Positions 1,814 through 36,270 of a stretch of 64,000 bases of DNA are shown here, piece after piece (position 1 is the first letter of the stretch; every line of letters begins with the position of its first letter). The stretch is taken from the NCBI GenBank assembly GCA_964355855.1, contig CAYHFD010000001.1, forward strand, positions 9,921-73,920, in the 5' to 3' direction. The DNA comes from an uncultured Candidatus Saccharibacteria bacterium. Its GTDB lineage: Bacteria; Patescibacteriota; Minisyncoccia; Phycocordibacterales; XYD1-FULL-46-19. Below the pieces are notes generated by a model. It ran no database searches. It was not told the DNA's origin and saw only the letters and a list, made by a program, of their open reading frames with translations. The position numbers were made by a program, and so were the translations under genes.

Positions 1814-2431
1814 CTAGTGATTATATTTATTCATCGCCAGCGCTAGCCCCTCGCGAACAATTGTTTCAATAATTAATGGCAATTTGTCCTTACTTTTATC
1901 AACTAATAACTTTTCATTTGGGGTAAAAGATTCTAAAACATGTTGGGTAATAGCTTTAGTATCCCGACCAACACCCAAACGGACGCGAACAAAATCTTTG
2001 GTTCCAATTGCATTTATGATGGAACTCACACCATTGTGTCCACCCGCTCCCCGATCTTGTGATAACCGAACTGTGCCAACCGGCAAATCAATATCATCGT
2101 GCACCACTATTAGTTGCGGTAATTTAGCTTGATAACGCAAATATTTTCTAACACTTTGGCCCGATAAATTCATAAAAGTTTGGGGTAATATTAGTGTTAC
2201 CATTTTGCCAGCCACTACGCCTTGAGAAATCAAAGCCTCGGCCTTGCGATTCTCTGTCCACTCGGAAAAATTAGAATTTTTGGCCTGCACCCTAAAGACG
2301 GCCTCTCTTCCGGTATTATGTCTAGTTTTTTCGTATTTTTTACCCGGATTTCCTAGACCAATCACCAAACAAGAAGGTCCCGTGGACTCGGTTTCTTCTT
2401 TTTGTCCCCAAATTTTTTGCCAAATATTCAT
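1814..2431 (-). CDS. pth: peptidyl-tRNA hydrolase
   Basis: LVIGLGNPGKKYEKTRHNTG motif; start taken at internal MNIWQK (upstream part of the long ORF is probably non-coding). Confidence 0.9.
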   Translation of the reverse strand: MNIWQKIWGQKEETESTGPSCLVIGLGNPGKKYEKTRHNTGREAVFRVQAKNSNFSEWTENRKAEALISQGVVAGKMVTLILPQTFMNLSGQSVRKYLRYQAKLPQLIVVHDDIDLPVGTVRLSQDRGAGGHNGVSSIINAIGTKDFVRVRLGVGRDTKAITQHVLESFTPNEKLLVDKSKDKLPLIIETIVREGLALAMNKYNH

Positions 2432-2533
2432 GTCTATAAGTAAGATTAAATTATACGATTTTTGTGAAGTTGCGTCAAAGTATAGTTTATAGTACAATTA
2501 CCCCACTTTGCAACTAATTTAGTCATATTTTAC

Positions 2534-3100
2534 ATGCCAGAAAACAACAAACAGACAGTTTTTGACATTATTCGTTTTGCTCTTATCACCCTTATTATTG
2601 TTATCCCTGTTCGAGCCTATGTGGCCCAGCCTTTTATTGTCTCTGGGGTGTCGATGGACCCCACTTTCGAGAATGGTGAGTATTTAATCGTCGATGAATT
2701 TTCTTATCACTTTCGAACGCCTGAACGAGGCGAGGTAATAGTTTTTCGTTACCCCAAAGACCCATCTAAATTTTTTATTAAACGGGTTATTGGTCTGCCG
2801 GGGGAAACAGTGGAAATTGAAAATGACCACGTGTCAGTTGTTGGCACAAACAATGTTGATGTTGTCCTAGACGAACCCTATCTTACTGTCCCTCCTTTAT
2901 ATGTTCCCAAATCTATAAAGCTTGGTGCAACAGAATATTTTGTGATGGGCGACAACCGCAGTATGAGTCTCGACTCTCGTTCGTGGGGCCCAGTCACCAT
3001 TCAACATATCAAGGGTCGAGTGGGAGTAAGACTTTTTCCCATCACTGAGGCCGAAATTTTACCAGGTGACTACAGTAATCAGATTAAAACCACAAAATAA
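2534..3100 (+). CDS. lepB: signal peptidase I
   Basis: N-terminal TM, SMDPTF / VIVFRYPKDPSKFFIKRVIGLPGE / GDNRSMSLDSRSWG boxes. Confidence 0.85.
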   Translation: MPENNKQTVFDIIRFALITLIIVIPVRAYVAQPFIVSGVSMDPTFENGEYLIVDEFSYHFRTPERGEVIVFRYPKDPSKFFIKRVIGLPGETVEIENDHVSVVGTNNVDVVLDEPYLTVPPLYVPKSIKLGATEYFVMGDNRSMSLDSRSWGPVTIQHIKGRVGVRLFPITEAEILPGDYSNQIKTTK

Positions 3101-3101
3101 T

Positions 3102-4406
3102 ATGCCTACCAGCAAAAAAGGCGTGGGATCAAATAAGGAAGAACTGCAAAGCCCTAAAGGTATGAGGGATTTAATTGGCAATGATCTTTTACACTACCAA
3201 GGTTTTTTTGAAAAGGCCGCCGAAATTGCTTTATATTATGGCTTTACCCCTATTGAAACTCCAATCCTTGAAAAAGAGTCGCTATTTATTCGTGGCGTTG
3301 GTGATGGTACCGATATTGTCGACAAAGAAATGTACACCCTAAAAACTCGCGGGGGCGATCGCTTGGCTCTGCGACCAGAATTTACCGCTTCGGTTATGCG
3401 CGCCTATTTTGAACACGGTATGCAATCTAAACCTCAACCGGTCATGCTTTATAGTCACGGACCGCTCTTTCGTCATGACAACCCCCAACGTGGTCGCTAT
3501 CGCCAACTCTACCAATTTAATTTAGAAATACTTGGCAGTAAAAAAAGTATCGCCGATGCAACTATTATAAAAATAGCTTCGCTTATTCTAACTGAAGTTG
3601 GCCTAAAAAATCACACTGTTCTTATAAATAGCATCGGCGACAAAGAATCCCAAATTGCTTACCGGCGTGAACTTGTGGCCTACTATCGTAAACACACCAA
3701 AACTATTTGTGCTGACTGCCGTGAACGTCTAAAGATCAATCCCCTCCGTTTATTGGATTGTAAAAACCCCAAATGTGCTGAAATTAAAAATGAAGCACCG
3801 GAAACTATCGCCTACCTTTCCACGGAAAGCAAAGCCCATTTCAAAGAAGTTTTGGAATATCTAGATTCAATGGAAATAAATTACACTATTTCCAGCACCT
3901 TGGTTCGGGGACTCGATTATTACACCCACACTGTTTTTGAAATAGTACCAGAAACGACTGGCGACGAAACACCTTTATCTTTAGGTGGTGGTGGTCGCTA
4001 TGACTATCTAGGTAAAATCCTATCCGGTAAAAAAGATGTTCCCGGTATGGGTATGGCCATTGGGGTTGATCGAGTTATGGAAACCCCGGGTTATTCTTTT
4101 CCCACCCCACGGATTGTTAAAAAACCTAAAGTATTTTTCATTCAGTTGTCGTTTGACGCCAAACTACGTTGTTTTGAAATTATTGAGATATTACGCAAAG
4201 CCAAAATACCTATCGCCCAATCTTTGACCAAAGATTCCCTATCAGCCCAACTTGGCACAGCCGAAAAATTGGGGGTAGCTTACGCTTTGATTTTGGGTCA
4301 AAAAGAGGCCCTAGAAGGCACTGTGATTGTCCGTAACATGGATACCCGCTCTCAAGATACAATTAAAATGGACAAATTGGCTGACTACCTAAAAAAAATA
4401 AAATAG
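3102..4406 (+). CDS. hisS: histidyl-tRNA synthetase (class II)
   Basis: GMRDLIG, TPIETPILE, YTLKTRGGDRLALRPEFTA, RHDNPQRGRYRQLYQFNLEILG motifs; start at MPTSKKG after lepB stop. Confidence 0.9.
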   Translation: MPTSKKGVGSNKEELQSPKGMRDLIGNDLLHYQGFFEKAAEIALYYGFTPIETPILEKESLFIRGVGDGTDIVDKEMYTLKTRGGDRLALRPEFTASVMRAYFEHGMQSKPQPVMLYSHGPLFRHDNPQRGRYRQLYQFNLEILGSKKSIADATIIKIASLILTEVGLKNHTVLINSIGDKESQIAYRRELVAYYRKHTKTICADCRERLKINPLRLLDCKNPKCAEIKNEAPETIAYLSTESKAHFKEVLEYLDSMEINYTISSTLVRGLDYYTHTVFEIVPETTGDETPLSLGGGGRYDYLGKILSGKKDVPGMGMAIGVDRVMETPGYSFPTPRIVKKPKVFFIQLSFDAKLRCFEIIEILRKAKIPIAQSLTKDSLSAQLGTAEKLGVAYALILGQKEALEGTVIVRNMDTRSQDTIKMDKLADYLKKIK

Positions 4407-5068: not shown

Positions 5069-6203
5069 TATTGGAACTGCCAGCATTAGGATTGTGGTCT
5101 GTGAATACAAAAACGGAAGCGCTGTGCCACAAGTCCTAGCCCTAGTTAAAAAAAATTCCCGCGGTCTTCGCCGTGGTTATATTTTGCAGTTTGACGAAGC
5201 GGTCGCGAGTATTAAAGAAGCCCTACAAGAAGCAGAGAGAGTGGCTGGTTGTAAAATTAAACAGGTTATCCTTGGTGTTGGCGGTGCCACCCTTGAATCA
5301 AAAATTATTGAGGGAGGGGTTATTGTCTCACGGGCCGATTCAGAAATAAACACCAATGATATTAATCGAGCCATTGAAGCCAGTGAAGCCGGCCTACCAG
5401 ATACCGCCAACAAGTCTATTATTCACCGTGTTCCAATTGCTTTTAAACTTGACGGTAAACGAGTCACCGGTAGACCAGAGGGACTAAAAGGTTCTAAACT
5501 AGAAGCCCAAATTTTGTTTGTAACTTATGCGTCAAACCATTTACGTGATTTTATTTCGGCGGTAGAAAGCGCTGGGGCCAGGGTGGATGATATCGCGGCC
5601 GCTCCTTTAGCTGCTAGTCTAGCTATCACCACTAAACTACAAAAAACCGCTGGCTGCGTGCTAGCTAATATTGGTTCGCAAACAACCTCTATTATAATTT
5701 TTGAAGAGGGTTTACCTCTTTCTTTAAAAGTATTTCCTATTGGTTCGACCGATATCACCAACGACATCGCCTTGGGCTTTCAAATTCCCCTCGAAGACGC
5801 TGAAAAAGTAAAAATAGGAGACATTGACGCCTCTATTCCCCAAAAAAAATTAGATGAAATTATTGAAGCCCGCTTGTCAGATATTTTTGAATTTATCGAA
5901 AATCATTTGAAAAGGTTGGGCCGCAACGGACTCCTCCCGGCTGGTATTATTATTACCGGCGGTGGGTCCGGTATTACCGAAATTGAACAGTTAGCTAAAG
6001 ATTATTTTAAACTCCCCGCCCGAGTCTCTATCCCAGCCGTGTCCACTGCCTCCAGAAACCAAATTCGCGAAACCGCTTGGTCGGTGGCTTATGGTCTCTG
6101 TTTGTTTGGGGCCGATTTTGAGGCCGAAGAATCATTGGGTCTGAAAATTGCTAAAACCACGAGACTAAACATCCTAAGGTGGATCAAAGAACTTTTGCCT
6201 TAA
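5040..6203 (+). CDS. ftsA: cell division protein FtsA (actin-like ATPase)
   Basis: IVTGLDIGTASIRIVV N-terminal phosphate-1 motif, IITGGGSG; directly upstream of ftsZ. Confidence 0.8.
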   Translation: MTRNIVTGLDIGTASIRIVVCEYKNGSAVPQVLALVKKNSRGLRRGYILQFDEAVASIKEALQEAERVAGCKIKQVILGVGGATLESKIIEGGVIVSRADSEINTNDINRAIEASEAGLPDTANKSIIHRVPIAFKLDGKRVTGRPEGLKGSKLEAQILFVTYASNHLRDFISAVESAGARVDDIAAAPLAASLAITTKLQKTAGCVLANIGSQTTSIIIFEEGLPLSLKVFPIGSTDITNDIALGFQIPLEDAEKVKIGDIDASIPQKKLDEIIEARLSDIFEFIENHLKRLGRNGLLPAGIIITGGGSGITEIEQLAKDYFKLPARVSIPAVSTASRNQIRETAWSVAYGLCLFGADFEAEESLGLKIAKTTRLNILRWIKELLP

Positions 6204-12825: not shown

Positions 12826-12974
12826 ATTTTTTTTATTTCTGTTTAAGGGTATTAATAGGTCGGACCTTGGATTCTTTAGCAGATAATGCGGCCAAGGGGG
12901 ATAACTTTGACTTTTTATATAAAGGGGATATACTTATTTTGTCTTAGGGTTTTACCATAAACTTTAAGGGTATT

Positions 12975-13633: not shown

Positions 13634-13681
13634 CCAAGGACCGTCCTTGGAAAAATTTTGATGTGGTGTAATTTTGCTTGG
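13634..13681. repeat. left inverted repeat (IR-A) of ~5 kb island
   Basis: CCAAGGACCGTCCTTGGAAAAATTTTGATGTGGTGTAATTTTGCTTGG matches reverse complement of 18631-18678 with about 5 mismatches. Confidence 0.8.
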
Positions 13682-13835
13682 CGGGCTACTCGAGTTAAAT
13701 ACCCCTAAGGCAAGGTGCCACAAGGGTATTCTAGCACTAATCAGCCCTCCTTTTCGAGACCTCAGAGTCGGGACTATAATATTGTAAATCCGATACTTAA
13801 AAAGATTCCTCTTGATACGCCACCCCTTATTGCGA

Positions 13836-14874: not shown

Positions 14875-14951
14875 GGTTATATTGTATATAGAACCAATAG
14901 TAAATCAAATTTGTAATAAATAGATCGGACCTATAATAATTCTTAAATGGC

Positions 14952-15927
14952 GGCTGACCTGCTCCGTAGAAAACACCTAACCCCAGACAATGGTTACATT
15001 GTGGACGAACAATCGAAGCATCATCTCACGACACTGCGACCAATATGACCGGGCTCGCAAGAACAAACCAAGATTGCTTTAATCATTGAGTTCACTGTTT
15101 CCCCTTGCCACCGCTGGCCGTAAAGAACCTTGTTGAAATGAGTGGCCATAATTTTCCGCCACTTGCCACTTGGAAGTTTGTCAGTTCGTCTGCCAATCCT
15201 CGGTGGGATAATTGTCCGAATGTTTTTCTCGCGAGCAAAGACATGTGAATGTTCGCTGTCATAACCAGCATCAGCCGTTAGGATCTTTAGGTGAACATTT
15301 TTTTCGGCTTCTTTCACTGCTTTTTCAAAATGAACAATATCAGGATATGGACCACGGGATGGCACTCCCGCTAGGACGAGATGGGTATGGCAATCAGAGA
15401 CAATACCAACCTTTGGATAGCGAGTATATGTTGTCAATTGGTACTTTTCTTCTCCTTTAGCTCTTCTTTTCACAAAATAAGTACTAATATGGTGCGATTC
15501 GAAGCCGGTGCCATCAATAGCCGAGAGTTGGATATTTTTTTGCATAATTTTTCTCTGAACCGCAAGAGCGAGAATTTCTTTAATGAGTTTGTCTAAGGTA
15601 TCTTTTTTGGTTAGCCGATAGGCGGCTTTTTGGAGGGTGGTGAAGTGTGGAATTTCGTTTAATTCGAGTATTTTCCTTAGATCGCTGGAGTCCTGCAATA
15701 TTTCTTCGATTCCGCGATAATCAGTAGTAAAAAATTCTTTCAGCACTAAGCAGGCGACTAGTTGATGTTGAGTAAACTTCTTGGGACTTTTGAGATGCCG
15801 AAATGGTGGTAATGCTCGCTTGGCGGTGGCGTAGGCAACCACCGCAATAGCGTTAGGTGATTTTGATGTTTTTATTACCCAAAGTATATCATGGGCTGTC
15901 TATGTTTTCTACGGAGCAGGGCTGACC
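14952..15927 (-). mobile_element. IS4/IS5-like insertion sequence with 17-bp terminal IRs and 8-bp target-site duplication
   Basis: CTGCTCCGTAGAAAACA at 14960-14976 and its reverse complement at 15903-15919, each flanked by direct GGCTGACC (14952-14959; 15920-15927). Confidence 0.75.
15021..15842 (-). CDS. DDE transposase (IS4/IS5-like)
   Basis: IDGTGFESHH ... ILTADAGYDSEHSHVFAREKNIRTIIPP catalytic DDE context. Confidence 0.85.
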   Translation of the reverse strand: MVAYATAKRALPPFRHLKSPKKFTQHQLVACLVLKEFFTTDYRGIEEILQDSSDLRKILELNEIPHFTTLQKAAYRLTKKDTLDKLIKEILALAVQRKIMQKNIQLSAIDGTGFESHHISTYFVKRRAKGEEKYQLTTYTRYPKVGIVSDCHTHLVLAGVPSRGPYPDIVHFEKAVKEAEKNVHLKILTADAGYDSEHSHVFAREKNIRTIIPPRIGRRTDKLPSGKWRKIMATHFNKVLYGQRWQGETVNSMIKAILVCSCEPGHIGRSVVR

Positions 15928-15987
15928 CAATTTCTGAAATAGTGGCTGATTTCATTATCTACCACATTATCCATTTCTAGAAGCTGA

Positions 15988-16191
15988 TTACATCCCTGAC
16001 CACTCCTTTTCACACTGTGCGCAACGATTATTGCCAGTATGTTCAAAAATATCAGTAAACTTGTTTGGCTGATATATTTTTTCATCTTCATTCCAGAAAA
16101 ATTCGTCATCTATAATTGTTTCTACTAACTTGCGTTCACAACCACAAAATTGACAAGAATGTTTTGGAAAAATTATGATTTCTTCATCCAT
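15988..16191 (-). CDS. small zinc-ribbon protein (CxxC...CxxC)
   Basis: CQFCGCERK ... CAQCEKEW. Confidence 0.4.
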   Translation of the reverse strand: MDEEIIIFPKHSCQFCGCERKLVETIIDDEFFWNEDEKIYQPNKFTDIFEHTGNNRCAQCEKEWSGM

Positions 16192-16226
16192 ATTCTGATC
16201 ATTGATCGAATCTAGAAGTAAGTCAA

Positions 16227-16994
16227 CTACTTTAATCGGTAGACGCCATCACCAGCGAATTCAAGATAGCCCTTATCTCTCAAGAATTGTAATTGCTGTC
16301 TGATTTTCGGTTTTATATTTTTGTTTTCAGGATGAATGACGGACAAATCTTGCTCAAAGACATACATGTCTTGCAGGGTAAACTCTTTTTTGTTAAGAAA
16401 ATCTATACAATTCATGATATCCAAAATCCAACCTTTTACATCAGCTTTTTTAACTTGTTTGAGAAATACTGTTTTCTGCCATTTTTCCAATACATCTTTT
16501 TTATATAGTTCTTTCCCGTTCTCAATATAAAAAATTTGTCCTGCTTTTGGTATTTTAGAAAAAAGTATGTTTGAACCGACCCAACCAGCTCGTCTAGCAC
16601 TTTCTGCGAGTGGTTTTCTTTGTTCGATAATTTCGGATACAAAAAAGTGTTTTGGTACAACAAAAAAATTATTTACATCCCACATCTCAACCATATAGCC
16701 CATGAAAAAGAAATTTGGTTTTTGAGGTGAATTAATTCTCTTTATCATCTGAGAATAAGCACCCGCAGAAACCTTTTTGCCCATCTTACCTTTTTTGGAT
16801 TTCAGTTCAAAATCTTCCGCACATTTTTTACAATAAAAATCTGCAACAGGCTTGTTGTTGTCATAATTGTAAATATCATTGCCACAGCTTGGGCAATAAA
16901 TTTCATTAAGAACCCAAGCCTCACTCAACACTCTAGCTTTTTGAGAATAACTTGTGTAATTGTTAGCTAATTTTGTGTCAAAATTTAAGTTCAT
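16227..16994 (-). CDS. DpnI-like (Dam-replacing family) methyl-directed type IIM restriction endonuclease
   Basis: Co-linear resemblance to R.DpnI as I recall it: SYSQKARVLSEAWVLNEIYCPSCGN, PVADFYCKKCAEDFELKSKKG, PNFFFMGY, KPLAESARRAGWVGSNI, C-terminal winged-helix IRQQLQFLRDKGYLEF. Confidence 0.75.
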   Translation of the reverse strand: MNLNFDTKLANNYTSYSQKARVLSEAWVLNEIYCPSCGNDIYNYDNNKPVADFYCKKCAEDFELKSKKGKMGKKVSAGAYSQMIKRINSPQKPNFFFMGYMVEMWDVNNFFVVPKHFFVSEIIEQRKPLAESARRAGWVGSNILFSKIPKAGQIFYIENGKELYKKDVLEKWQKTVFLKQVKKADVKGWILDIMNCIDFLNKKEFTLQDMYVFEQDLSVIHPENKNIKPKIRQQLQFLRDKGYLEFAGDGVYRLK

Positions 16995-16997
16995 AAA

Positions 16998-17840
16998 TTA
17001 TGCCCCCAGTTTGTCTGGTTTCTTCAAGCTCTTTTTTTCATCAGATTTTAACTTCCTCTCAATTTTTTTTATGTCTTCTTCCGCCGGTAATTTTTCAGGA
17101 GTAATTCCTCGACTCAAAAGTGTTCTTCGGACACTTCTATTGTTTGTAATATGTTCTTCGGAAATAGATTGTTCACTTCTCAAGTTTTTACTTTTTGAAT
17201 TAAAAATAGTGATCTCTGTTGCAAAATCCTTCGCTTTTAGAATTATTGTTGGTTGAAAATCAGCAAGCGCACGACCACTAGGAACACCGAGCCGATTTTT
17301 CATTTCTTGAGTTGTATACCCAAATAATGCTTTATCTCCCTTACTTCGTATGAGTGCAAAATTTTTATCACTCCCCGTTTGTTGAAAAATAACACCTGAC
17401 AACTCTTTTTCTGTCTCTGTCAATTTTTGCCGAGCGTTTAGTCTTTCAAATTCTTGTATTCGTTTCTCAATAATTTCAAATTTTCTTGTTTGCACCGCAA
17501 AGTAATTTTGAGCAAATGCAATTTCTTCTTTTCTTGGATCGCCATTTTGAGCAATTAGGTAGCAGGCATACCGAGTAAGCATGATATCTGGAACCTCCTT
17601 TTGCGCACCTTTTGGCATTTGGATCGTTTTCCCGACGTCGGCAAAATGATCATTTACACTGTGACCCGTTACCTCACAAGCAGTTTTTGCCTTTGAGATA
17701 ACAGAGATGAAATTATCCCATTTTGTATAACCCAATAACTGTTGTAAATCACGGGCAAGCCAAAATTCAACACCTTCGCTAGATCTATTGGCATAAGATT
17801 CAAAATTACTTATAAGCGATTTAATAATTTCTATTTTCAT
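16998..17840 (-). CDS. DinD-like (DNA-damage-inducible protein D family, Bro-N-like) protein
   Basis: GVEFWLARDLQQLLGY..W.NF, TRYACYLIAQNGDPRK, FAQNYFAVQTR closely parallel E. coli DinD blocks. Confidence 0.7.
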   Translation of the reverse strand: MKIEIIKSLISNFESYANRSSEGVEFWLARDLQQLLGYTKWDNFISVISKAKTACEVTGHSVNDHFADVGKTIQMPKGAQKEVPDIMLTRYACYLIAQNGDPRKEEIAFAQNYFAVQTRKFEIIEKRIQEFERLNARQKLTETEKELSGVIFQQTGSDKNFALIRSKGDKALFGYTTQEMKNRLGVPSGRALADFQPTIILKAKDFATEITIFNSKSKNLRSEQSISEEHITNNRSVRRTLLSRGITPEKLPAEEDIKKIERKLKSDEKKSLKKPDKLGA

Positions 17841-17879
17841 AAGTCTATTTTAACAATTCATAACTCAAAACACCAAGCG

Positions 17880-18113
17880 CTTTGGCAATATTGGTAATGG
17901 TCGAAAGTGTAGGTGATACATAGGTCGGACCCATGGAAATGGTGACCCTCACAGCCTGGGAAACCCCCACCCGCCATCGCAAGCTCAGGCGTTGCGGGGC
18001 AGGCACGGTTTTCCGACGAGCTTCGCTCTGCCTTCCTCCACGGGAAAACAGGTGTTTTCCCGACCCCTTTCCCCTGTAGGGTCACAGTTTTTTCACTGTG
18101 TTTTAAAAAACTG
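17880..18113 (-). ncRNA. GC-rich structured element G (homolog of 27480-27702), immediately 3' of tRNA-Glu
   Basis: GC-rich in AT-rich genome; shared blocks CCTGGGAAACCC, GGTTTTCC, CTCCACGGGA.A.CAGGTGTT.TCC with element R; 20-bp perfect inverted repeat 18074-18124 includes the tRNA 3' end. Confidence 0.4.
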
Positions 18114-18185
18114 TGACCCTACAGAGAATCGAACTCTGATTACCGCCTTGAAAAGGCGATGTCCTAACCGTTAGACGATAGGGCC
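18114..18185 (-). tRNA. tRNA-Glu (anticodon TTC)
   Basis: GGCCCTATCGTCTAACGGTTAGGACATCGCCTTTTCAAGGCGGTAATCAGAGTTCGATTCTCTGTAGGGTCA folds as cloverleaf; loop TTTTCAA. Confidence 0.85.
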
Positions 18186-18542
18186 AATATTCTATATTTT
18201 AAAACTATCTATTATATTTACCAATATTTATTAGGAACATCGCCTTTACTATTTAATGTGAAAAGGCTTACCCTATTACCTTGTAAACATCAGCAATTTC
18301 TCGTCTGTCAGCGAGAACCGGATAAAAGGTAAAGTAGTTTACCTTTTATTCCAATAACCGTTTCTTGCCCGCCGAAGCCTTGGCGAAGGTGGGGACGATA
18401 GGGCCCTAAATCCACTTTTGGCGAATCGGGCGAACAGTTTCAAAGGAACTGTTTTAGCCAAAAACCGACCAAAAACGAACACGCCTAATATAACATTTTT
18501 TTGAAAAAAGCCAAGAGTTAGGGTAGGATGTAGTAGTATCTT

Positions 18543-18633
18543 GGAAGGGTACCAAAGCGGTCATAATGGCACCGATTCGAAATCGGTTGAGGGCGTAAGT
18601 CCTACAAGGGTTCGAATCCCTTCCCTTCCGCCA
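18543..18633 (+). tRNA. tRNA-Ser (anticodon CGA), long variable arm, CCA encoded
   Basis: Acceptor GGAAGGG/CCCTTCC, anticodon stem ACCGA/TCGGT loop TTCGAAA, variable arm TGAGGGCGTAAGTCCTAC, T-arm AAGGG-TTCGAAT-CCCTT. Confidence 0.9.
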
Positions 18634-18678
18634 AACAAAATTACAACACACTAAAATTTTTCCAAGGACGGTCCTTGG
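18631..18678. repeat. right inverted repeat (IR-B) of ~5 kb island, begins at CCA of tRNA-Ser
   Basis: CCAAACAAAATTACAACACACTAAAATTTTTCCAAGGACGGTCCTTGG; reverse complement matches 13634-13681; similarity extends to CCGCCA of the tRNA 3' end. Confidence 0.8.
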
Positions 18679-18687
18679 TAAACTACT

Positions 18688-19092
18688 ATGAACATCTTCG
18701 AAAAAGTAAAATCTCTAAACTTTCCGACCGGCCAATATGTCGTGGTTGGTAGTGGTATACTAGAAGCAAAAGGTATTAGAGAAACTCATGATGTTGATGT
18801 AGTGGTCACTCCCGAGCTATTTGAAAAATGCAAAACAGAAGGTTGGGAACAGGTTCCATGGACTTATGAAAAAATCGACCAGATTTACTTAAAGAAAGGA
18901 GAATTTGAGGTGTACCTAGACGTAAATTGCAGAGATTTTAATCCAACTTTTAGTGAACTTATACAAAGAGCCGAGACTATCGATGATATAACTTTTGCCT
19001 CGTTACAAGATACAATTAATTTTAAAAGGGCTTACAATAAACCCAAGCATTTGGCTGATCTAAAACTTATTGAAAAATACTTACAAAAATAA
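18688..19092 (+). CDS. minimal nucleotidyltransferase-fold protein (MNT-like), hypothetical
   Basis: VVVGSGILEAKGIRETHDVDVVV resembles GS..DxD NTase core; 134 aa. Confidence 0.4.
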   Translation: MNIFEKVKSLNFPTGQYVVVGSGILEAKGIRETHDVDVVVTPELFEKCKTEGWEQVPWTYEKIDQIYLKKGEFEVYLDVNCRDFNPTFSELIQRAETIDDITFASLQDTINFKRAYNKPKHLADLKLIEKYLQK

Positions 19093-19169
19093 ATTCTCAT
19101 GGGTCCAACCTATTTATTCTCTTTTTAGATTTTAGACAAATCATTTATTTAATTTTATTATATTAGGAT

Positions 19170-25026: not shown

Positions 25027-25391
25027 TGCTTGGGGGCGGGTTCGAACCGCCGACCCTTCGCTCTTCCAGAGCGTTTGGACTATATCATCATCCGTTCTGC
25101 TAATAAGCAGAGTTAGGAGGCAGGCGCTTCCCCTCAACTACGCTCGGGGTAAACCCTAAGCTAATCAAGAGTACTCCCTTTCGGGATAGTCTCTACACCT
25201 TCCGAGCACCACTTTTGAATTCTAGAATATTCTAAAAACCAAAAGTGGTGCTCGGCTTGGCTCGGGATTGTCCAAAAAATTAATCTTGGGTGTCCCCCGA
25301 ATTCACCTACTTTTTCGATCCACTTTACAATAGAAAGGCCCGAAGTTTTTTAGGGTCCAGGCGAATGCTCTACCAACTGAGCTACCCAAGC
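25027..25391 (-). tRNA. tRNA-Phe (inferred anticodon GAA) interrupted by a ~282-nt group-I-like intron in the anticodon loop
   Basis: 5' exon 25359-25391: GCTTGGGTAGCTCAGTTGGTAGAGCATTCGCCT; 3' exon 25027-25076: GAAGAGCGAAGGGTCGGCGGTTCGAACCCGCCCCCAAGCA; halves form perfect acceptor (GCTTGGG/CCCAAGC), anticodon (TTCGC/GCGAA) and T stems. Confidence 0.75.
25077..25358 (-). ncRNA. group I intron (self-splicing ribozyme candidate) within tRNA-Phe
   Basis: 5' exon ends in U, intron ends in G; contains GAGACTATCCCGAAAGGGAGTACTC (P7/GAAA-tetraloop-like) and GATGATATAGTCC (P7') reminiscent of the Tetrahymena/cyanobacterial cores. Confidence 0.65.
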
Positions 25392-35813: not shown

Positions 35814-35820
35814 CGATATA

Positions 35821-36270
35821 ATTGCCTTTTGTTTATAAGCCGAATTCTGTACCGAGCACCACTTCTGACACCCACATTCTTATTAGAAAACACTAAGTAA
35901 GTGTAAATTGATTTGCTAGTGAAAGTTAGACAGTCAGTAGCAGAAGTGGTGCTCGGCGATAGCCATTTATCTGGGATGACTGTCGCCAGCCACCTCAAGC
36001 GGCACAAACCAGTGCAAAGCACTGGAGTACGACCTTGCATTCGGGTAGGTATTTTGCCGTTTCAATCTTCAGGTTTCCCTGAAGCTTCACCCCAAAGGGT
36101 GCCTTTGCCTCTCGGCTAGGGCGTCACTGCTCTCAACCCTCGGATTGCTCCGGACAGGCGTTACCTGCTACCTTGTTCCACCATCTAAAGATAGTGGGAA
36201 TGTTCGGACTTTCCTCTATCAGCCCGCCCAATCGGGCAAACTGACAGTAGCTATCCAACAAAAGGCAACC
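35821..36270 (-). ncRNA. rnpB: RNase P RNA (bacterial type A-like)
   Basis: Minus-strand: GAGGAAAGUCCGAAC (P4 5' strand), GGUAACGCCUG, GGGUGAAGC, ACAGAAUUCGGCUUAUA (P4 3' strand); P1 GGUUGCCUUUUGUU pairs with AACAAAAGGCAAUU. Confidence 0.8.

Follow-up and report, generated by a model that had tools for sequence, protein, structure and literature searches.

A putatively mobile DpnI-family restriction cassette with DinD and a small zinc-ribbon protein as neighbours in a groundwater CPR bacterium

Does a methyl-directed restriction enzyme of the DpnI family act together with the two genes that adjoin it, and what might those neighbours contribute? The question arises from a 64,000-nucleotide stretch of DNA (the window) taken from a 76.9-kb contig of a metagenome from Hainich groundwater (well H52). 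As it carries dnaA, gyrA, groEL, ftsZ, and tsaD, the contig is chromosomal, and the nearest named relatives of its source are genomes of the Patescibacteria, or candidate phyla radiation (CPR). Three genes of the window's open reading frame (ORF) list lie in a row on the reverse strand: a dinD-like gene (17840..16998, 280 amino acids), a DpnI-family endonuclease gene (16994..16227, 255 amino acids), and a gene for a 67-amino-acid protein that we call Zn67 (16191..15988). The DinD gene ends 3 nucleotides (nt) before the start codon of DpnI, and 35 nt separate DpnI from Zn67. The ORFs themselves are just as an earlier note on this sequence gave them. The DinD-DpnI-Zn67 trio is found again on two shorter contigs from the Hainich site; since the gene order is identical on independent contigs, it is not a chance pattern of ORFs. 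We surveyed the neighbourhoods of 80 DpnI loci from reference genomes and of 80 DinD loci from metagenomes; loci L001 to L003 belong to the window's own population, and L005 is the closest relative. The best overall explanation, which we consider probable, is that the three genes are a mobile Type IIM DpnI cassette with DinD and Zn67 as accessories.

The earlier note had likened the 255-residue protein to DpnI, and profile searches agree. Residues 1 to 180 match Pfam family PF06044 (DpnI) with 246.6 bits over profile positions 1 to 182 of 183, and residues 186 to 253 match the winged-helix family PF17726 (DpnI_C) with 108.5 bits. The PADLOC model for Type II methyl-directed enzymes, mREase_II, scores 344 bits, and the solved DpnI structures 4esj/4kyw align to residues 1 to 253 (E = 4.2e-80). 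We then compared residues whose roles in DpnI are described in PMC4117772 and PMC3424567. The catalytic PD-(D/E)XK residues D52, E63, and K65 (D53, E64, and K66 in DpnI) are kept, as are the Cys4 zinc site of C34, C37, C55, and C58 in CxxC...CxxC arrangement, the guanine-contact equivalents N47 (DpnI N48), R126, and R135, and the methyl-cleft residues L129, R135, W138, and G140. All 13 functional positions checked are conserved in the window protein and vary little or not at all among 72 homologs; both the zinc site and the C-terminal winged helix that had been pointed out are present. Membership in the DpnI (Type IIM) family at full length is secure at the level of sequence because both domains, the 4esj match, and every functional residue agree. 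Cleavage dependent on Gm6ATC (GATC with N6-methyladenine) is the expected activity. The endonuclease itself is ordinary, and the interest of the locus lies in the neighbouring genes.

Zn67 is acidic and is predicted to bind zinc through a Cys4 site made up of C13-x2-C16 and C57-x2-C60; searches of Pfam, NCBIfam, PADLOC, and PHROG gave no match. Residues C13, C16, C57, C60, H51, and W64 are invariant across 44 homologs, and the invariance of the cysteines marks Zn67 as a real, conserved gene. An AlphaFold2 model (predicted local distance difference test score, pLDDT, 84) shows a long beta-hairpin with strands at residues 21 to 34 and 39 to 57, closed by two CxxC knuckles. The modelled fold thus has the layout of a zinc ribbon, two CxxC knuckles joined by a beta-hairpin, with metal binding predicted, and the earlier identification of a downstream CxxC zinc ribbon was correct. 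The family comprises 75 clusters (≥60% identity), with only 28 representatives among 1.84 billion proteins. Zn67 lies directly after DpnI in every context examined, whatever stands upstream. By sequence it is a real, narrow orphan family, restricted in lineage, that occupies the position of dpnD without being homologous to it.

In the pneumococcal DpnI cassette the second gene is dpnD, whose role has lacked an explanation (PMC4471560). A small same-strand ORF begins 4 to 74 bp after DpnI in 57 of the 73 DpnI loci whose sequence extends past the gene, and seven families recur among these ORFs. The largest is a modular acidic family (22 loci), followed by DpnD/PcfM (PF14207; 13 loci, Bacteroidota among them), Zn67 (9 loci and the window), a mini-nucleotidyltransferase (4 loci), and three smaller families with 4, 3, and 2 loci. 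The three largest families have no mutual homology (profile-profile probability <1%), and alignment of Zn67 with DpnD-like proteins by hhalign gives a probability of 0.1%. They are alike in charge, at -0.07 to -0.15 per residue versus +0.009 (standard deviation 0.036) for background ORFs. Zn67 is a tighter partner of DpnI than DinD is, yet the position is shared out among at least seven small proteins without common ancestry in sequence, and Zn67 is just one of them. That these are mostly acidic suggests a shared role, such as control of the nuclease. Within the modular acidic family, three modules are seen as separate proteins or fused in various ways (e.g., L029, L041, L049).

The 280-residue protein upstream of DpnI scores 361.9 bits against NCBIfam NF008573, "DNA damage-inducible protein D" (equivalog cutoff 242), with residues 2 to 278 aligned to profile positions 2 to 287 of 288. 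Its N-terminal part is a Bro-N DNA-binding domain (Pfam PF02498, 46.2 bits, residues 22 to 111) and its C-terminal part is a helical region. It also matches the PADLOC candidate PDC-S13 (380.8 bits), the N-terminal 278 positions of a 717-position PADLOC model for a Type I S subunit, which represents a fusion of DinD with HsdS, and the phage protein family phrog_8036 of PHROG (322 bits). The assignment to the DinD family made in the earlier note therefore stands, although "close" homolog overstates the relationship, as identity to E. coli DinD is about 37%. The name DinD derives from the LexA regulation of the gene in E. coli. Nothing points to the damage-inducible control that had been suggested for the window locus: reading positions 17841 to 18112 by eye, we saw no SOS-box-like CTGT-N8-ACAG element, a motif that may not be the LexA site of CPR bacteria.

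How specific is the link between DinD and DpnI? DinD adjoins DpnI in 3 of the 80 DpnI loci (L005, L008, and L013), with a distant DinD-like gene 1.3 kb from DpnI in L038, and DpnI follows DinD in 4 of the 80 DinD loci. A restriction-modification gene of some kind stands beside DinD far more often, in 39 of the 80 DinD loci. In 14 of these, DinD lies between a ResIII helicase and an N6/N4 methylase in a Type III-like arrangement; HsdS is the neighbour in 12, and the rest divide into HsdR (5), HsdM or a Type IIG-like methylase (4), and DpnI (4). Overlaps of 4 nt are common at the junctions between DinD and restriction genes. With 39 of 80 loci having such a neighbour, DinD is a general companion of restriction operons, and its pairing with DpnI is one instance of this. 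In the Type III-like set (e.g., L097, L103, L111, L113, L115, L120, L122, L133, L142, L149), the helicase has about 1020 to 1070 amino acids and the methylase about 930 to 950. In the literature, we found DinD or Bro-N linked with defence or restriction in passing mentions only, and a search for PDC-S13 yielded no papers; the relevant passage of PMC9881135 lists, without comment, a dinD-domain coding sequence and RhuM between Type I core genes.

The pairing is nonetheless more than accidental. The gap between DinD and DpnI is 3 to 6 nt in six independent loci, and the identities of DinD and DpnI drop in step from locus to locus (97/92, 97/88, 82/85, 81/86, 81/67, and 67/50%). Further, in L018 a different Bro-N protein takes the place of DinD, overlapping the start of DpnI, and the helix-turn-helix (HTH) gene above it is 90% identical to the HTH gene of L084. 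The narrow gaps, the parallel identities, and the Bro-N protein in the same place together support this conclusion. The earlier suggestion that the three genes should be tested as a unit is borne out only in part. The triplet is not conserved as a unit; DinD-DpnI-Zn67 occurs only in L001 to L003 and in the near relative L005, and Type I or Type III-like operons contain DinD much more commonly than DpnI loci do. The locus is better restated as a DpnI cassette joined by a general companion of restriction operons, DinD, and by one of many interchangeable small partners, Zn67.

The extent of this cassette can be read from comparison with relatives. By blastn, homology to L005 (85% DNA identity) is confined to window positions 17913 to 16000, a span that opens in the tail of an HTH_3 gene and closes with Zn67, and homology to relatives ceases near 16000. 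The HTH_3 remnant (17845..17913, reverse strand) comprises about the last 22 codons of the gene (...PTLSTITNIAKALGVLSYELLK). An intact 94-amino-acid HTH_3 gene lies 4 nt upstream of DinD in L084, and HTH homologs also precede DinD or the Bro-N protein in L005 and L018. The upstream flank is formed by tRNA-Glu(TTC) (18113..18185, reverse strand; ARAGORN and Rfam); tRNA-Glu is near DpnI also in L005, L010, L031, and L050. An insertion sequence (IS) element of the IS5 family (14937..15941, reverse strand) is inserted 47 bp beyond Zn67 and delimits the cassette on that side. It has 39-nt imperfect terminal inverted repeats and a transposase gene (15842..15021, DDE_Tnp_1) whose IS5-family NCBIfam matches are below cutoff. 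The G+C content between 13 and 17.8 kb is 0.33 to 0.38, the IS excepted, versus about 0.42 to 0.45 elsewhere, and DpnI is 76 to 92% identical across several named CPR groups. Because homology to L005 is confined, DpnI is spread over CPR groups, G+C content is low, and a tRNA and an IS form the flanks, the window copy appears to be a mobile DpnI cassette of about 1.9 kb in a low-G+C variable island by tRNA-Glu. MsrA and MsrB genes are near DpnI-Zn67 in L165, L166, and the window; together with the recurrence of tRNA-Glu, these neighbours suggest a conserved variable hotspot in these genomes.

Several further features were seen around the cassette. A perfect 20-nt inverted repeat (18074-18093 and 18105-18124) has the 3' end of tRNA-Glu as one arm, and next to it the place of the 5' part of the HTH gene is taken by about 140 nt of GC-rich sequence (17932-18073). 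An imperfect 51-nt inverted repeat (13634-13684 and 18628-18678; 92% complementary), one arm of which is the 3' flank of tRNA-Ser including a terminator-like hairpin, brackets about 4.9 kb that contain the DpnI cassette, the IS, and a nucleotidyltransferase gene, and may be the trace of an inversion or integration. A direct repeat of attachment (att) type at tRNA-Glu bounding the island was looked for and not found; there is only the inverted copy of the tRNA 3' end and the inverted copy of the tRNA-Ser flank. The 12-mer GGTCCGACCTAT occurs four times, one mismatch allowed (12855-12866, 14920-14931, and 17920-17931 on the reverse strand and 19102-19113 on the forward strand), all within 6.3 kb and against 0.21 copies expected. 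Each copy lies 30 to 80 nt upstream of a gene or cassette start in the same orientation, and it could be a local promoter, operator, or recombination site. We rejected GGTCCGACCTAT as a mark of the cassette boundary: it is absent from the loci of all other organisms and is therefore a local host feature outside the mobile cassette. A promoter and terminator scan gave no clear enrichment over shuffled sequence, and a permissive Rfam scan of 17800-18720 returned only two tRNAs and hairpin artefacts. Next to the IS, the low-G+C segment 13016-14874 encodes an NYN-domain protein (190 amino acids), a Polbeta-type nucleotidyltransferase (260 amino acids), and a very acidic 51-amino-acid ORF, which may be further defence or toxin-antitoxin modules. 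In L084, inverted copies of about 150 nt (130-297 and 5509-5658) flank a 5.4-kb segment with HTH, DinD, DpnI, a methylase fusion, and a 693-amino-acid protein, and this segment may be a composite mobile element.

A DpnI-like enzyme had been taken to imply that the host is not Dam-methylated, and the data fit such an incompatibility. Pfam annotation of the whole 76.9-kb contig contains no DNA methyltransferase family, and Dam-like queries from E. coli, CPR, and Bacteroidota found zero matches in the window by tblastn. Matches to the E. coli query in other loci are validated by recovery of the DPPY and FxGxG motifs; the zero result in the window is backed independently by the CPR and Bacteroidota queries and by the contig annotation. 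Among relatives, DpnI is immediately preceded by a Dam-like D12 methylase gene, or a piece of one, in about 19 of the 80 genome loci. Loci L004 and L007, both from CPR and with a DpnI 91% identical to that of the window, have a dam-like gene that stops just past its DPPY motif, 3 nt before the DpnI start. Others are fragmented (L037, L057, L063, L065, and L083), and in Bacteroidota copies the last 15 or so conserved residues are swapped for a common unrelated tail. As judged from sequence, truncation of this kind is what one would expect of DpnI cassettes that take over from dam or put it out of action, and it lends weight to the Dam incompatibility proposed for the host.

Some details of these methylase genes may be recorded here. 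The Bacteroidota tail (...GRAFRSNLF...KGFPLQSLTQ) may be a common cassette junction or a repeat element. Truncated or fragmented dam-like genes beside DpnI include those of L004, L007, L039, L048, L058, L060, and L066, and further ones are found in L068 to L071, L073, L081, and others. In L084 (2152-3189) and L004 (10729-11772), the 3' end of DpnI overlaps a gene for a 345-amino-acid fusion, in which a mini-nucleotidyltransferase domain is joined to a DNA methylase of N6/N4 type with an HPPY motif.

If the three genes are a mobile DpnI cassette with two accessories, they would probably work as follows. In relatives, the full cassette has the order HTH_3 regulator, Bro-N/DinD protein, DpnI, and small accessory protein; the window copy has lost most of the HTH gene and is followed by an IS5-family element. 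The three remaining genes are likely co-transcribed, to judge by their 3-nt and 35-nt gaps. DpnI would recognise fully methylated Gm6ATC twice, with its catalytic and with its winged-helix domain, and the DNA would then be cleaved. It would thereby destroy DNA from Dam-methylating hosts or from dam-carrying phages, and host DNA would be spared because it lacks adenine methylation at GATC. DinD most likely acts as an accessory on DNA or on RecA after cleavage. In a passage of PMC10602874 that cites Uranga 2011, E. coli DinD is described as an inhibitor of RecA. The E. coli protein takes RecA filaments apart; by analogy, the window protein could block the recombinational rescue of restricted DNA. 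It would not be a damage sensor controlling DpnI. Zn67 most likely binds DpnI and modulates or inhibits it, thereby holding self-damage in check, for instance when the cassette is becoming established in a previously Dam-positive cell; we propose this because it sits in the dpnD position and is small and acidic, like most other proteins found there.

A broader form of this idea, that DinD-family proteins are dedicated accessories of several restriction types, perhaps antagonising RecA filaments so that restricted invader DNA escapes recombinational rescue no longer, or serving as back-up effectors once restriction is blocked, and that the acidic proteins after DpnI (DpnD, Zn67, and others) are interchangeable DpnI-binding inhibitors, strikes us as unlikely on present grounds. 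Were it true, a methyl-dependent nuclease cassette could, with the help of such an inhibitor, survive on entering a Dam-methylated host and then replace dam there.

A number of observations count against the account that we prefer. The evidence for a missing dam comes from 76.9 kb of a genome that is probably about 1 Mb, and the depletion of GATC in the window is slight (observed/expected = 0.73) and therefore uninformative. In L166, a divergent and apparently intact MethyltransfD12 gene (2357-3223) ends 1 nt before DpnI-Zn67; if this methylase modifies GATC, DpnI must be restrained there. The specificity of the window enzyme is read from its conserved residues, and the accessory mechanisms of DinD and Zn67 are inferences. 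The structure model of DinD (pLDDT 55) is too poor for use or for a fold search, and a fold search with Zn67 found no structural neighbour that hints at its function. One of the post-DpnI families, of 52 amino acids, is basic, so acidity is not universal at that position. Finally, DinD stands without restriction-modification neighbours on three annotated plasmid loci (Zymomonas, Parabacteroides, and Bernardetia), and a phage protein family contains it. The association with DpnI is therefore not obligatory, which limits the generality of the link to restriction.

These last points raise the question of whether DinD is a stand-alone gene for defence or stress (PDC-S13) that came to lie beside DpnI as the island accumulated genes, functionally uncoupled from it. 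The rarity of the adjacency (3 of 80 DpnI loci, 4 of 80 DinD loci), the solitary plasmid copies and the phage family, the PADLOC treatment of PDC-S13 as a single-gene candidate, and the presence of unrelated modules in the window island (NYN, nucleotidyltransferase, and IS) all agree with such a reading. Against it stand the gaps of 3 to 6 nt in six loci, the joint divergence of DinD and DpnI, a Bro-N protein in the same slot between the same HTH gene and DpnI in L018, and the 4-nt overlaps with which DinD lies between Type I and Type III-like subunit genes, a closer arrangement than shared residence in an island. We regard uncoupling as somewhat doubtful for these reasons.

It is distinctly less plausible that DinD or its Bro-N equivalent forms, with the HTH protein, a transcriptional control unit like the controller (C) proteins of Type II systems, with Zn67 as a co-regulator. 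In its favour, the Bro-N domain binds DNA, the cassettes of L084, L005, and L018 begin with an HTH_3 gene, and small regulators commonly precede restriction genes. Simple repression would, however, leave the large conserved C-terminal region of the 280-residue DinD superfluous; DinD homologs sit between structural subunit genes rather than at operon heads, DinD, DpnI, and Zn67 are all intact in the window cassette, which has lost its HTH gene, and no operator was identified. Least probable of all, and in our judgement very improbable, is that the DpnI homolog departs here from methyl-dependent GATC cleavage, being changed in specificity, inactive, or working with a methylase. A D12-class methylase gene lies directly upstream in some relatives, the N6/N4-type methylase fusion lies just downstream in L084 and L004, and the specificity is a prediction from sequence. 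Set against this are the 13 conserved positions, essentially invariant in 72 homologs, the truncation of most adjacent dam-like genes, and the lack of an annotated methylase on the window's contig. A mobile DpnI cassette with DinD and Zn67 as accessories accounts best for the data as a whole.

DinD has been known as an SOS gene for decades, and to our knowledge its physiological role has never been settled. That about half of the sampled DinD homologs lie inside Type I, Type III-like, Type IIG-like, or DpnI operons offers a concrete context in which its function can be tested. Dam replacement has been described in Neisseria and is paralleled by cassette exchange in the pneumococcus; truncated dam genes beside DpnI in both CPR and Bacteroidota suggest that replacing dam is one general way in which such cassettes spread.

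Elsewhere in the window, a group I catalytic intron match (25058-25361, reverse strand) scores 54.3 bits in Rfam (gathering score 50) between two small called genes. A bacterial RNase P class A RNA (35820-36266, reverse strand) barely exceeds its gathering score (103.4 versus 100), which suggests a divergent RNase P RNA in this lineage.

How does the locus compare with known systems? The window DinD resembles E. coli DinD in scoring above the equivalog cutoff over its full length and in its Bro-N plus C-terminal architecture. Unlike the solitary SOS gene dinD of E. coli, it lies in a predicted operon with a restriction enzyme and is only about 37% identical. The E. coli protein inhibits RecA post-synaptic filaments and is LexA-regulated; the window protein is likened to it by sequence, and no SOS box was seen upstream. 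Accessory genes embedded in restriction operons have precedents in the PrrC anticodon nuclease within EcoprrI and in RhuM, Fic/DOC, and DUF1016 genes set among those for Type I subunits. Like these, DinD homologs lie between hsdR, hsdM, and hsdS or between res and mod, often with overlapping stop and start codons; DinD differs in that it is not known to respond to a trigger, to be toxic, or to serve as a back-up defence.

The "dam-replacing protein" of Neisseria (PF06044) belongs to the same enzyme family as the window DpnI, and the Pfam description of that family mentions flanking small-repeat elements. Dam replacement in Neisseria has a parallel in the relatives of the window, in which DpnI lies on or against a truncated dam-like gene. 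The window itself differs in that no dam remnant was detected and DinD fills that position. The closest counterpart is the DpnI cassette of Streptococcus pneumoniae (dpnC and dpnD), which encodes the same two-domain endonuclease with conserved catalytic, zinc, and m6A-pocket residues. Both loci have a small co-directional gene after the endonuclease, lack a cognate methylase, and form a mobile, cassette-like unit. They differ in that the downstream gene of the window, Zn67, has no detectable homology to DpnD/PcfM, that DinD and an HTH remnant precede the endonuclease, and that the host is a CPR bacterium with the cassette placed beside tRNA-Glu.

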